This document shows positions 10,461 to 20,849 of a DNA stretch of 64,000 bases, piece after piece. Source of the stretch: Escherichia coli. Its GTDB lineage: Bacteria > Pseudomonadota > Gammaproteobacteria > Enterobacterales > Enterobacteriaceae. The notes beneath the pieces were generated by a model, which saw nothing but the letters and a program-made list of their open reading frames with translations, was not told the origin of the DNA and ran no database searches. The position numbers were made by a program, and so were the translations under genes. Position 1 is the first letter of the stretch. Every line of letters begins with the position of its first letter. The stretch is from the NCBI RefSeq assembly GCF_003018255.1, contig NZ_CP027440.1. One strand, given 5' to 3'.

Positions 10461-12430
<1,970 letters not shown>

Positions 12431-12459
12431 ATTTTGCCTATTTTAGGTGATAGCGCGCG

Positions 12460-12478
12460 CTCGTATCCCCGCCACGCC
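12460..12478. other. Candidate phage cos site
   Basis: Minus-strand read GGCGTGGCGGGGATACGAG; the first 13 nt match the 19-nt cohesive end of phage 186 as I recall it (GGCGTGGCGGGGAAAGCAT). Lies between the tum-like module and the portal side, as expected in the P2/186 map. Confidence 0.45.
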
Positions 12479-12526
12479 TGCCCGCTTTATGTAGTGGTTT
12501 TCATGCACCTGCATGATCTACGCAAA

Positions 12527-12546
12527 AGCCCGCCAGTTCTGGCGGG
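12527..12546 (-). terminator. Rho-independent terminator-like hairpin downstream of the DinI-like gene
   Basis: Perfect 9-bp stem GCCCGCCAG/CTGGCGGGC followed by TTTTG on the minus strand. Confidence 0.5.
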
Positions 12547-12682
12547 CCTTAGCAAAAACGATCCTCAAACGATCATGCGATCTCATGCGGCATAGACATG
12601 CACTACAGAGCTAACGCCTCGCAAGGGCTCGTTGTTCAACCTTGCTGACGCCAGAAACAAGTTCAGACGCCAGCAACGTTTC

Positions 12683-12916
12683 TTAATGCAGCCAGCTGTC
12701 GTCTTCCCACACCTTTTGCATAATTTTCATCACTTGCTTCCTTTCTTCGTCCAGTTGCAGTCCTGTCAGTTCCACACCGTTAGAGCTACCTTTACGGATA
12801 CGAATTACCGTTTTGGGATACAGGGGGCGCAGATTGCGGTAAAGCTCGGATTCAAGGGCGTCCAGGGTAGACTGGCTAATCTTCTGCTCTTTATCGATCA
12901 TTATTTCAATGCGCAT
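12683..12916 (-). CDS. DinI-family protein (Tum C-terminal-like)
   Basis: Start at MRIEIMIDK gives about 77 aa, resembling E. coli DinI (MRIEV...); downstream of a LexA box. Confidence 0.7.
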   Translation of the reverse strand: MRIEIMIDKEQKISQSTLDALESELYRNLRPLYPKTVIRIRKGSSNGVELTGLQLDEERKQVMKIMQKVWEDDSWLH

Positions 12917-12926
12917 AAAAGTCACC

Positions 12927-13115
12927 TCAGCTGATGACATCCATTGAGCGGTTGTATTCGTGGGTTCTGATTTTTGCCATGAGTTCATCTGTCAGTTCAG
13001 AAACCCACTGCAGAGCCAGCCCCTTCTCTTCATCACTACACTCACTAGCCGCTACAAGCTTAAGAAAAAAATCAATGCGCTGGAGCTTCAAAGACTCCAA
13101 AAAATAGTCCTGCAT
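12927..13115 (-). CDS. Small SOS-controlled protein (possible Tum N-terminal part)
   Basis: About 62 aa from MQDYF; overlaps the DinI-like ORF in another frame; first ORF after the LexA box. Confidence 0.45.
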   Translation of the reverse strand: MQDYFLESLKLQRIDFFLKLVAASECSDEEKGLALQWVSELTDELMAKIRTHEYNRSMDVIS

Positions 13116-13158
13116 CTTTCCTCCTATGACACCACACGCAATACTGTATGTATAACCA

Positions 13159-13174
13159 CTGTTTATATTTACAG
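13159..13174. promoter_or_regulatory. LexA (SOS) box
   Basis: Exact CTGT-N8-ACAG palindrome CTGTTTATATTTACAG about 45 bp upstream of the small ORF, in an AT-rich promoter-like stretch. Confidence 0.7.
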
Positions 13175-13268
13175 TATATAATAATCTTACTGATGTAAAA
13201 CGTTTTTTTACATTCATCAGCCTGATATGCCTGGTATTATTAAGAGCACGAATTGTTAACCCGCGTAA

Positions 13269-15710
13269 TTAATACAGGTTCCGCCACTGATCATCTTCCT
13301 GCAAACGCTGGTTCCGATAGAAGATACGCAGGCCTGCTCCTGACGGAATACTGCCTCCGCGAAGGAGTAAATCGACCTCTTTCTCGCTGCCATCAAATCC
13401 TCTGGACTTCAGCTCATACACGAGCTGCAGTCGCTGATGGTCTGTAATTCGCTGTTTGTAGTCTTTACGCCGTTTCGGTTTCACCAGGCGTAACCTTGCA
13501 GCCAGTTCCCGGCGCTCTTTTTTGCTCATACTGTGCAGGTAATCGTGCAACTCCTTGTCATCCATGCGGGTAATGTCCGTTCTGGTATCCCCATCAGCTG
13601 ATTTGTCTTTCCCTTGTTGGTTCAAATTTTCAGCAAGGGGACAGTTATTGCCACGAGTCCAAGGGGCGCAAGCGCCCTGGTCGGCTGCCGCCTCCTGAAC
13701 GTCAACGGCCTTACGAACCATTTTCCACTTCACTGCATGAGTGCAGATCTTGCCCTCTGCAATGGGTGACCAGATGCCATAAATACGAATACCGTGATCA
13801 CCATAGGCGGTCGGCTCTTCGTTGATTTCATAAGCGGTTCTGATCAAGTGATATTTGCGGGGAACCAGTACGCCGCCCTGCTTCATAATGTAGGTGGCAA
13901 AACAGCCAGCATCAGCAGCAGCCAGAATGGCATCAAGGCGCGGGTTATCCAGTACCGACGCACCTGCTTTTTTGTCACCCTGTTGCCTTGCCGCCTGACC
14001 AGCCAGCAATCGCAGTTCACGGTAAGCCTGACGCCCCGGAATGCCAAAGAAGCGGAATTGCTGAACACGATGCAGAGACGCCCAGGCATTAACGTATTCA
14101 GCATTATCACGCAGGGATTTACCCGTTTCCTTGCTGATCTCGCCAGCCAGACCACGCCCGTCAATGTTCTTACTGATGTATTTCGCGATGTAGCTTGTTG
14201 GCGTACCTTTGCGCGGGTTTATCAGCTCAGACTTAAAGCGTGGCCCCGTGTTATTACCCAGCTCCTCGCGGTCTTCACGAATGGCAAACTTACGCAGCAA
14301 AGCAGTAATGGCGCGGCGATCTTTTTTGCGCATGAAACACAACAGGTGCCAGTGAACTGTGCCGTCATGATGCGGCTCAGCCACCCGCACGCCATACCAG
14401 CGCAACCCGGTTTTGTGCATAGCCTTACGAAATGCAGCAAACATGCCGACCAGATAATCGCTGCTTTGTCTTACCGTCGCGTTTGTCCAGGTCGGGTTTG
14501 GTCTGCCGTTATTGAGCGTGGAATGGAAACGCGACGGACAGGTGATGGTGTAGAAAACGGCACAGTCACTGCGCATTTCCGCGATAAGCTCCAGACCTTT
14601 AACACAGGCCATCATCTCATTGCGGCGATGCGCCGGGTTGCTGCTGCTGGCCTTTACCACATCTTCCATATCCAGCGTGTCGCCGTTTTCGTTCACCAGT
14701 TCATGAGAACGGAAAAACTCCAGCGACTTACGGCGCTGCTCACGTTTATGCATCACGGCTTCATAGCTGACATAGGGAGATGCTTTTTTGCTGACCAGGC
14801 AGACAGCACGCAACTGCTCTTCCCGCCATTCGCAGCGCATCTTCCATAATTTCCGATACCACCAGTCGGCACACAACATACGCGCCAGCGAACCCGGAAT
14901 GAGTTCATAGGGCACGGGTTTGCGACGCTTTCTTTTCCGACGAAGTTGCTCAAACGCAGGCGGGATAACATCCAGTCGCAGGGTTTCCGCTGCCACCTTT
15001 TCCCATGTCTTGCGGATTTCTTCTGGCTTAACATCATCGGTGGCGTACAAATCACCACAAGCGGCATCAAGGCACATGCTCATATGCGCAGCTACCAGGG
15101 TGGACAGGCGTTTCACCTGATCCTGACTCATTTCAGGCAGGATCAGCAGGCCGTCCAGCCCTTCATGGCTCGCCATAAAGCGAAAAGAAGTGGATAGCTG
15201 ACTGTCGCGTACATGCTCCAGCCGTTCCAGACATGGCTTAATCGTCTCACGCAAATAGCGAGAATAAGCCTTTGGCCTGCCCAGGCTGCTGAAGTATTCA
15301 ATACGTTGCATCAGCGGCTTGCTGATATGGGAAGGCTGGGCGTTAACGTCCGCCAGAATGACCATGTCCGGATTAAAACGCTGCTGCTCATGCGCCAGCT
15401 TTGCCCGGCTAATGAGCTTATCCTGCTCCATTTCGCGTTGGACAGGATCACGGGATTCATTAAAGAAATAACGCTCCCAGACCTGATCACTCAGTGCCTC
15501 GCGGCGCAGTTGTTCCTGCTCGTTATCGGCAGCGTACAGAGTGATCAGGTTTGAAAGCGCAGAAACCGGCGCAACTTCCGCCGGGTCCAGATAAGGGTTA
15601 ATGGCTTTCTTAGGTAAATTCCACGAATAACCCCCGGCAGAATTCTCAATGCTACCGGAAGTTACACTGACAAATGGATCGGCAAGACGGCCTGTGCTGA
15701 TCTCTGTCAC
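13269..15710 (-). CDS. Replication initiation endonuclease (P2/186 gpA-like)
   Basis: 813 aa; Y-x-K catalytic-tyrosine-like region (YIAKYISKN); position as in P2/186; start overlaps the upstream stop as ATGA. Confidence 0.85.
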
Positions 15711-19926: not shown

Positions 19927-20069
19927 AAGGCAACATTCCTTCTAGATATGGCTTGTGGCGAGCCGTTGTTTGTCGTGATTAGTAGTGAAGGCTCCAAAAG
20001 AACACTTCTGGTTCAACTTTAAGATCTCTTTTGGAATCTGTCAACGAATTTTGGATTTCTTTGGAGGAC
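19927..20069. promoter_or_regulatory. Lysis-lysogeny switch region (pR/pL-like)
   Basis: Intergenic region between divergent apl and cI genes; inferred from 186 architecture, no promoter elements mapped. Confidence 0.4.
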
Positions 20070-20641
20070 TTGTGGATTTCAATAGCGGCGGTAAGAAAGC
20101 CATAGAACGTTTAGTTGAAGCATATGGGTTCGGTACCCGTCAGGCTCTCTGTGATCATTTAGGTGTTTCTAAGAGCACCATGGCAACGCGCTATATGCGT
20201 GATATTTTTCCAGCAGATTGGGTAATCCAGTGCGCCCTTGAAACGGGCACCTCGCTTAATTGGCTAACAACAGGGCATGGTTCAAAGCAAGCATCAGCAA
20301 ATACAAATACTATGGAAGTTGCTAAATATGTATTATCTGATGGGGCCTTGTGTGAAGACGGTTTTTATATTTTCGATAGGGAATTTCTACCGTCGGCATT
20401 CAAGAATATTTTTGCAATCACAGATAATAATTCTGAATTTGTTTGTGATAAGGAATTTGATGATATACGTGATGGTAAATGGGTAATAAGTATTGATGGC
20501 GAAATAACGATCCGTGACATTACTCGTTTACCCGGTGGAAGAATCTTCGTCGAGGGTGGAAACAGAGCCTTCGAATGCAAGATAGAAGACATTGAAATAA
20601 TTGGTAAAATTATAAGTTTAACAGTCAAGTATGTTAAATAG
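19985..20641 (+). CDS. CI-type immunity repressor (186 family)
   Basis: HTH region ([24 protein letters not shown]) plus C-terminal domain; ORF start is probably an over-call, true start likely near the GTG at about 20070. Confidence 0.75.
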
Positions 20642-20657
20642 TACCGGGAGGAAAACT

Positions 20658-20849
20658 ATGCTTGGTAAGGTATTTTTTGTGGTTTTGTCATGTTCTTTGT
20701 TATTAAACCCACTAACTACCTATGCTAGAAATTATCCCTGTTCAGGGAAAAAGGGAGGTGTTTCTCACTGTACCTCAGATGGCAAATTTGTTTGCAATGA
20801 TGGAACTATTAGTAAATCCAAAAAAATCTGTACTAAAAACTCACGATAA
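20658..20849 (+). CDS. Small secreted cysteine-rich protein (moron)
   Basis: 63 aa with signal peptide [23 protein letters not shown] and a mature part with six Cys; AT-rich; sits between cI and int. Confidence 0.5.

Follow-up and report, generated by a model that had tools for sequence, protein, structure and literature searches.

The region downstream of the replication gene A in the 64-kb window (the whole stretch of DNA analysed here) is very probably the SOS operon of a P2-like prophage of the 186/Fels-2 type that carries the retron Ec67, with tum in its split form. By analogy with 186, PSP3, and Fels-2, it is also highly likely that this region represents a LexA-repressed tumA-tumB operon, in which the first product would inactivate the prophage repressor CI and the second would modulate RecA. 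The anatomy of the locus, the homologies of its proteins, the conservation of its elements, and the selection on its genes are observations of the present analysis; for LexA control and antirepressor activity, the basis is the published work on 186, PSP3, and Fels-2, and both are proposed here by comparison. The module is the textbook SOS switch of the 186-type phages, of which the split form has already been described for PSP3 and Fels-2, and its kind is already known. The locus itself has been known since the work on the retron Ec67, and its DinI-like gene has been on database record for decades; in 2003, for example, the entry for SopEphi described its own copy as “similar to DinI-like protein in retron EC67”. 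The additions made here are modest, and consist of a colicin-like double operator and an antirepressor that is decoupled from the immunity type.

The module lies on the minus strand, downstream of gene A, which ends at position 13269, and close to the cos (right) end of a P2/186-like prophage that has a CI/Apl/CII switch. The ORF list of the window indicates a P2/186-type prophage with int, cI, an apl-like gene, and cII, and the order on the minus strand is gene A, the LexA box, the 62-aa ORF, the DinI-like ORF, and then the retron Ec67. The same order is found in an E. coli chromosome that is 99.2% identical to the window and has been annotated by the NCBI PGAP, where int, CI, a small Apl/Cox-like gene, CII, and Fil are followed, further on, by the Dam methylase, gene A, the 62-aa gene, and the DinI-like gene, and these, in turn, by the reverse transcriptase of the retron Ec67 and the portal and terminase genes. 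The module region is matched in 1280 of the 5426 complete E. coli genomes, and the retron version in 14. This gene context, together with the conservation of the LexA box and the homologies to Tum and DinI, bears out the preliminary description, in which the sequence was read as a LexA-controlled Tum/DinI-like module that corresponds in map position to tum of 186.

When the ORFs are called at their greatest length, a frame of 96 aa from position 13217 and another of 101 aa from 12988 overlap in different frames. The 96-aa version, however, would begin upstream of the promoter and read across both operators, and the 101-aa version passes over an ATG placed behind a ribosome-binding site. With the starts that have ribosome-binding sites, the tumA-like gene of 62 aa, the presumed antirepressor of the prophage CI, occupies positions 12927..13115 of the minus strand (ATG at 13115, TGA ending at 12927), with the Shine-Dalgarno sequence AGGAGG at 13120..13125 (minus), 4 nt before the ATG. 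The tumB or DinI-like gene, of 77 aa, occupies 12683..12916 of the same strand (ATG at 12916, end at 12683), and the two genes are 10 nt apart, with the TGA of the first being followed by GAGGTG and then by the ATG of the second. In the 99.2%-identical genome, the PGAP annotation also gives genes of 189 bp and 234 bp with a 10-nt gap, and Fels-2 is annotated likewise. The overlap is an artefact of the calling of the longest ORFs; the ORF of roughly 62 aa and the DinI-family ORF noticed at the outset are both real, and the overlap that had been attributed to them is not. A small hairpin (GTCATC-agctga-GGTGAC; 12921..12938, minus) covers the tumA stop codon and the ribosome-binding site of tumB, and is the only minus-strand match inside the module in a scan for terminator-like sequences; the other match of this type is on the plus strand, at 12482-12497, adjoining cos. 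The tumA/tumB junctions of Klebsiella phi4.1 and MLG42 also have hairpins, of a different sequence, and a possible role for the hairpin of the window is the translational coupling of tumA and tumB.

The 62-aa protein is, by profile comparison, a homologue of the N-terminal half of Tum. It falls in phrog_698 (E = 3.6e-38), with further matches to phrog_8554 and phrog_1993, and the first 61 residues of Tum match phrog_1993, phrog_37919, phrog_8554, and phrog_698, the last of these in exact register. When 28 diverse members of the 62-aa family were combined in a profile and this was compared with 186 Tum by hhalign, residues 3-44 of the family were aligned with residues 3-44 of Tum, with a probability of 94.9% and an E-value of 4.5e-8. 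The homology is visible by profiles only, and the pairwise BLASTP comparison of the 62-aa ORF with 186 Tum returned no alignment. The protein is identical to STM2728 of Fels-2 at 61 of 62 residues (98%), and has only 22% identity with the 60-aa TumA of PSP3. No family match to the 62-aa ORF was found in Pfam or NCBIfam. The AlphaFold model of the protein is a two-helix hairpin (pLDDT 88), for which the Foldseek search of the PDB recovered only generic helical hairpins, none of them at E <= 0.001. In ESSI2_ev040, Cronobacter ESSI-2, and Yersinia YenM_06.16-2, the gene of the N-domain follows a LexA box without any dinI beside it, and the small protein is therefore the autonomous core of the module. 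In related E. coli genomes and phage records, this gene is labelled “hypothetical protein” or, in places, “levan regulatory protein”, and it could now be named in annotations as a TumA-type antirepressor.

The assignment of the second ORF to the DinI family, which had been proposed from the sequence at first sight, is confirmed. The 77-aa protein matches the Pfam DinI family (PF06183) over its full length (E = 8.2e-23, model positions 1-63 of 63), aligns with residues 71-145 of 186 Tum at 41% identity (E = 3e-24), and can be aligned end to end with the solved structure of the E. coli DinI (1GHH). It shares the fold family with the E. coli DinI, but has only 30% identity with it, and reaches 42.7 bits against the NCBIfam equivalog NF007893, for which the cut-off is 111 bits; given this score, far below the cut-off, the protein is DinI-like, and is not the orthologue of the host DinI. 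It is identical to STM2726.1 of Fels-2 at 77 of 77 residues and 78% identical to TumB of PSP3, and its start codon corresponds in position to the internal GTG from which 186 makes its short Tum product. As a member of this family, it would be expected to bind RecA filaments. Given the two sets of homologies, the two ORFs jointly cover both halves of Tum, and the alignment with 186 Tum that the preliminary description had suggested is thus obtained by BLASTP for the DinI-like ORF and by profiles (hhalign) for the 62-aa ORF.

A number of related systems provide a framework for the interpretation of this locus. The closest is Fels-2, which shares the gene lengths (189 + 234 bp), the 10-nt gap, the near identity of the proteins (98% and 100%), the double LexA box, and the site after gene A, but differs in its CI, which is only 40% identical to that of the window, in its non-retron cargo beyond cos, in an extra gene of 243 aa that separates the DinI-like gene from the terminator/cos block, and in the lack of the GGTTGAACAACGAG block described below. 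In PSP3, two genes also follow a LexA box, and tumB is 78% identical, but tumA has 60 aa and only 22% identity, the gap is of 3 nt, the LexA box is single, and two more genes precede cos. The annotation of PSP3 describes tumA as “similar to 5' end 186 tum; UV induction of prophage” and tumB as “similar to dinI and 3' end of 186 tum”. Phage 186 itself shares the map position, a LexA box over a TACTGT -10 hexamer, the homology of both halves, and the separate production of the DinI-like half, whereas in 186 the halves are fused in one protein of 146 aa, behind a single LexA box, and are followed by orf97 and the terminators t95a and t95b. The splitting of tum by a stop codon in Fels-2 and PSP3 was described by Lemire et al. 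(PMC3121763), where the upstream gene of PSP3 is said, from a personal communication quoted there, to be an antirepressor (PMC3121763). The dinI-gfoA/gftA operons of the Gifsy prophages are also LexA-repressed, and also combine a DinI homologue with a small antirepressor (PMC3121763), but have the reverse order, with dinI first, and their antirepressors and the repressors that these target belong to other families.

The exact palindrome CTGT-N8-ACAG that had been noticed upstream of the 62-aa ORF is present as CTGTTTATATTTACAG at 13159..13174, and is the only instance in the 64-kb window. It is contained in LexA box 1, the 20-mer TACTGTAAATATAAACAGTG (13157..13176, minus), which fits the LexA consensus TACTGTATATATATACAGTA at 17 of 20 positions. 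A second box, CAGTGGTTATACATACAGTA (13142..13161, minus), is half-degenerate, with 15 of 20 positions of the consensus, and overlaps the first by 5 nt, that is, at an offset of 15 bp. The left arm of box 1 is at the same time the putative -10 hexamer TACTGT (13171..13176, minus), which is the same as the annotated -10 of the 186 promoter p95, and 17 nt upstream of it, by analogy, is the putative -35 hexamer TTTACA (13194..13199, minus) of the tum promoter, the equivalent of p95. A hexamer similar to TTTACA or TTCACA is kept at the place of the -35 in the related loci, and the -35 of 186 p95 is annotated as TTCACA. The record of 186 (NC_001317) annotates p95, the LexA site over the -10, and tum with its internal starts, and this annotated LexA site in the p95 operator aligns with the box of the window. 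On these comparisons, the LexA operator would overlap the promoter of the operon. The -10 TACTGT is weak, and the tum promoter was not called in the generic scan of the window for promoters and terminators. The AT-rich palindrome ATGTAAAA-aaacg-TTTTACAT (13213..13193), upstream of the box, was considered as a terminator of gene A, and was dropped because SopEphi, MLG42, and Klebsiella phi4.1 do not share it.

The double box has the form CTGT-N8-ACAGTGG-N8-ACAG in all six of the Fels-2-type loci examined (Fels-2, SopEphi, MLG42, Klebsiella phi4.1, phage 500465-1, and the 99.2%-identical E. coli genome); 186 and PSP3 have a single LexA box each. A search with the 51 nt of the operator region matched approximately 800 plasmid records, with 80-90% identity over about 42 nt, and the two of these records that were opened are the promoters of a colicin-like tRNase and of a pore-forming colicin. 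In the alignment, the core TACTGT...CAGTGGTTATAT.TACAGTATT is common to the operator of the window and to both colicin promoters. The colicin operon promoters of the Col plasmids thus resemble the present operator in their two LexA boxes at a 15-bp offset, in the shared junction CAGTGG, and in an identity of about 84-86% over approximately 42 nt, but the placement of the -35 and -10 is unrelated to that of the tum operon, as are the genes downstream. The resemblance may represent convergence rather than common descent, which is possible because the geometry of the overlap and the LexA consensus fix most of the positions. The double SOS boxes of the colicins bind two LexA dimers (PMC2994835), and a similar arrangement at the tum promoter would be expected to keep it tightly repressed, with expression only under a strong or prolonged SOS signal.

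The presumed target of the 62-aa protein is the prophage CI, which is encoded by the cI gene at 19985..20641 (plus strand, start codon uncertain). In phage 186, Tum sequesters CI after the derepression of p95 by the loss of LexA repression (PMC7708051), and, by analogy, the 62-aa protein presumably binds the CI of the window and blocks its binding to the operators, which would render the prophage inducible by the SOS response. No CI in the phage collection is more than 56% identical to that of the window, and this holds also for the CIs of the phages with an identical 62-aa protein. This protein is 100% identical in vB_EcoM-813R9, Cartapus, and the Klebsiella phages Kp4860-7 and Kp4845-2, and the CIs of these four phages have 73-83% identity with the window CI in the N-terminal DNA-binding domain, against 29-40% in the C-terminal domain. 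In a set of 12 related phages, in which shared ancestry and co-evolution are incompletely separated, the identity of the TumA-type protein tracks that of the CI N-terminal domain (Mantel r = 0.86, p = 0.0006), and is not correlated with that of the C-terminal domain (r = 0.30, p = 0.07). This covariation, in a small sample of kin, suggests that the conserved N-terminal DNA-binding domain of CI is where the 62-aa antirepressor binds, and that a single antirepressor may work with more than one type of immunity. Docking at this end of the repressor also fits the known effect of the antirepressor, which is to block operator binding.

A wider reading of these data, which is conceivable and on the whole rather doubtful, is that the protein is a broad-range antirepressor, which docks on the N-terminal domain of CI and not on the variable remainder, and which serves or could cross-induce many immunity types, with the double operator setting a high threshold of damage. 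If this reading were true, one identical antirepressor would be at work across the P2-like prophages of Escherichia, Klebsiella, and Salmonella. The pairing of one antirepressor with widely different CIs, which have only the N-terminal domain in common, provides a prediction of the docking domain, and of a possible cross-induction between heteroimmune prophages.

The operation of the module may be envisaged as follows. In the undamaged cell, LexA dimers would occupy the two overlapping operators, and would cover the -10 hexamer and the start of transcription. Damage to the DNA would activate RecA, leading to the self-cleavage of LexA and the firing of the promoter, with one transcript providing two proteins. 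The 62-aa protein would bind the prophage CI stoichiometrically and reversibly, keeping it off its operators, which would, in turn, derepress the lytic promoter and induce the prophage. The 77-aa TumB, as the equivalent of the short Tum that is made from the internal GTG in 186, would bind RecA filaments and tune the strength or the duration of the SOS response, and the transcript would end at a GC hairpin with a run of U, 47 nt before cos. Within this scheme, we infer the domain targeted on CI, the translational coupling of the two genes, and the tight or late induction through the double operator.

Three alternative readings were considered. The LexA-like palindrome might be a chance match in AT-rich DNA, with the operon being transcribed by read-through from gene A, and the motif CTGT-N8-ACAG alone, which is expected 0.67 times per 64 kb at the composition of the window, is not significant by itself; the weakness of the predicted -10 would also be consistent with a fortuitous match. 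However, sites with three or fewer mismatches to the full LexA consensus occur once in the window and in none of 100 shuffled sequences, and each of the 10 loci compared has a strong box (16-19 of 20 positions) ahead of the homologous ORF, at 38-68 nt from its start codon (the window, Fels-2, SopEphi, Yersinia MLG42, Klebsiella phi4.1, ESSI2_ev040, Cronobacter ESSI-2, Yersinia YenM_06.16-2, PSP3, and 186, with the 220 nt upstream of the ORF being taken from each), at the same place and within flanks that have diverged. The annotation of 186, moreover, gives the site as the operator of p95, which is SOS-dependent, and a chance origin of the box is barely credible. The preliminary description had also left a choice between a frameshifted tum and a genuine arrangement of two genes. 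A tum gene disrupted through a frameshift, nonsense mutation, or sequencing error, with pseudogene halves that no longer work as they do in 186, would account for the single protein of 146 aa that spans both halves in 186, and for the overlap of the longest ORFs of the window in different frames, but its probability is negligible in the face of the distribution and the evolution of the two genes. The two-gene layout, with its own ribosome-binding site and ATG, recurs in Fels-2, SopEphi, MLG42, the Klebsiella phages, and PSP3, and the module region in the 1280 E. coli genomes cited above. In the window, Fels-2, SopEphi, MLG42, and Klebsiella phi4.1, the dN/dS ratio lies between 0.08 and 0.12 in the 62-aa gene and between 0.03 and 0.10 in the DinI-like gene, that is, approximately 0.1 in both halves, with a near-saturated dS of 0.5-1.0, which indicates that both frames have been maintained for a long time. 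No fusion to DinI was found among the 66 family representatives (at 50% identity) or the best 120 of 482 close relatives, and the longer entries of the family are gene calls that have been extended upstream. Even in 186, the DinI-like half is also made as a product of its own, which starts at an internal GTG preceded by AAGGAGG, at a position equivalent to that of the ATG in the window. The split of tum is genuine and old, given the strong purifying selection on both genes, so that, of the two options, it is the two-gene arrangement that stands, and the frameshift that falls.

There is somewhat more to be said for an SOS accessory operon that does not induce the prophage, in which the DinI-like protein acts on the host RecA and the 62-aa protein is either otherwise employed or left without a partner after recombination has exchanged the immunity region. 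This would be compatible with the presence of an identical 62-aa protein alongside CIs that are only 40-56% identical to that of the window, and with the searches of Pfam and of structures, which gave the 62-aa protein no independent functional handle. The pattern within CI argues against it, however, given that the N-terminal domains remain 70-83% identical while the C-terminal domains drop to 27-40%, which fits a conserved docking surface. The maintenance of the N-domain gene behind a LexA box even where dinI is absent, the strong purifying selection, and the induction of Fels-2, with its 98%-identical protein, when LexA is absent, also count against an operon with no part in induction, and the accessory role is considered quite improbable in comparison with an antirepressor that acts on CI.

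Downstream of tumB, the putative terminator of the operon is a GC-rich hairpin followed by UUUU in the cos-proximal right end (12524..12550, minus), recognized by folding. The structure, AAGGCCCGCCA-GAAC-UGGCGGGCUUU and then U, has 11 pairs and a GAAC loop, and the 71-nt segment that contains it folds at -28.9 kcal/mol (z = -3.5). Only four U follow the hairpin, some of which are paired within the stem, and it is not listed by the simple scan for terminators. The hairpin is conserved in phage 500465-1, MLG42, and Fels-2, and its core, GCCAGnnCTGGCG, is found even in 186 and PSP3, where there is no run of U after it; a role in packaging, in addition to termination, is therefore possible. The hairpin was also considered as a counterpart of the 186 terminator t95b, but no t95b sequence is found in the window, and in the alignment the hairpin corresponds to the final 65 nt of 186. 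As it is kept in relatives that have no retron, the hairpin is no adaptation to this cargo, but belongs to the conserved right end of the phage itself, where it stands 47 nt ahead of cos with or without a retron. The strong hairpin that had been described as a terminator insulating the retron is thus real, and the retron-specific function that was assigned to it is not upheld. In the prophage, it may well stop SOS transcripts from crossing cos.

Between tumB and the hairpin lies an invariant bipartite block, GGTTGAACAACGAG-N4/5-GCGAGGCGTTAG (12610..12641, minus), which was recognized by its conservation in the relatives, being present in 186, PSP3, SopEphi, MLG42, Klebsiella phi4.1, and 500465-1, and absent from Fels-2. 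An RNA stem was considered for this block, and was abandoned, as it had no covariation support. The search of Rfam over positions 12150-13300 found no RNA family, the retron msr included. The cohesive-end sequence GGCGTGGCGGGGATACGAG of cos is at 12460..12478 (minus), and the linear genomes of 186 and PSP3 end at the base just before it, in ...CATAAAG(T/C)GGGCA, which corresponds to position 12479 of the window; the 19 nt of GGCGTGGCGGGGATACGAG (12478..12460) have what we take to be the form of a P2/186 cohesive end. The homology with the retron-less relatives 500465-1, MLG42, and Fels-2 crosses cos and ends at approximately position 12453, where the retron Ec67 cargo begins. The cargo beyond cos differs from phage to phage, being the retron Ec67 in the window and, for example, a TIR-domain protein in 500465-1.

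The part of the CI repressor that is common to the window and the phages carrying an identical copy of the presumed 62-aa antirepressor (TumA-type) is restricted to the N-terminal domain. The repressor gene is found on the plus strand (window 19985-20641), and its start codon is uncertain, the expected start having no ATG nearby. In a collection of 50,697 phage records, the best identity of this repressor to any CI was 56%, while in the phages with the identical antirepressor, identity to the window CI was 70-83% in the N-terminal domain and 27-40% in the C-terminal domain. In Klebsiella phage Kp4860-7 (L015), the frame located 5' of cI carries the CI N-terminal domain once more, in tandem (KVIERILMAYGFKSRQAF...WLAFG); a tblastn search of these phage records gave matches at two places. 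A comparable upstream N-terminal duplicate is present in PSP3, in the frame of the annotated cI.

The tum promoter contains a predicted double LexA operator (window 13142-13176), which is almost identical in sequence to the double SOS box of the colicin promoters of small Col plasmids (L012:1497-1538 and L013:1501-1543, for example). A nucleotide search with the operator region recovered approximately 800 plasmid records, with 80-90% identity across some 42 nt. Further along the same operon, a small hairpin, GTCATC-agctga-GGTGAC (window 12921-12938, minus strand), spans both the stop codon of tumA and the ribosome-binding site of tumB. The tumA/tumB junctions of Klebsiella phi4.1 and MLG42 also have hairpins, but their sequences differ from that of the window, and the presence of these junction structures hints at a translational coupling of tumA and tumB.

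A bipartite DNA block, GGTTGAACAACGAG-N4/5-GCGAGGCGTTAG, lies 42 nt 3' of the stop codon of the dinI-like gene (window 12610-12641, minus strand), and is invariant within surroundings that have otherwise diverged among SopEphi, MLG42, Klebsiella phi4.1, phage 500465-1, 186, and PSP3. The block follows orf97 in 186 and is located between orf37 and orf38 in PSP3, whereas Fels-2, unlike the window, lacks it. A search for RNA covariation in the block of the related phages found none.

The cos cohesive-end sequence, GGCGTGGCGGGGATACGAG, is found at window 12460-12478 (minus strand), and the linear 186 and PSP3 genomes have the immediately preceding base as their last one. The match to the retron-less relatives breaks off at around 12453, just beyond cos, which indicates that the retron Ec67 cargo (from about 12453 down to 10461) occupies a slot with cos on one side and the portal gene on the other; in phage 500465-1, this slot holds a TIR-domain gene instead. 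No Rfam model detected the msr/msd of the retron in a scan of window 12150-13300. The reverse transcriptase ORF (window 10461-12401, minus strand) has 646 open codons, counted from the first ATG, in comparison with the 626-codon version annotated in a relative. The sequence MTKTSKLD starts at codon 61 of this ORF, and the reported length of RT-Eco2 is 586 residues (PMC6868368).

The interval between cI and int looks like a further cargo slot of the same prophage family. In NZ_CP148326, a genome that is 99% identical and also carries the retron, this interval is taken up by a 558-aa DUF4041 gene (L003:12025-13701), whereas the ORF found there in the window (20631-20849, plus strand) is 72 aa long and has a signal sequence like that of a lipoprotein.
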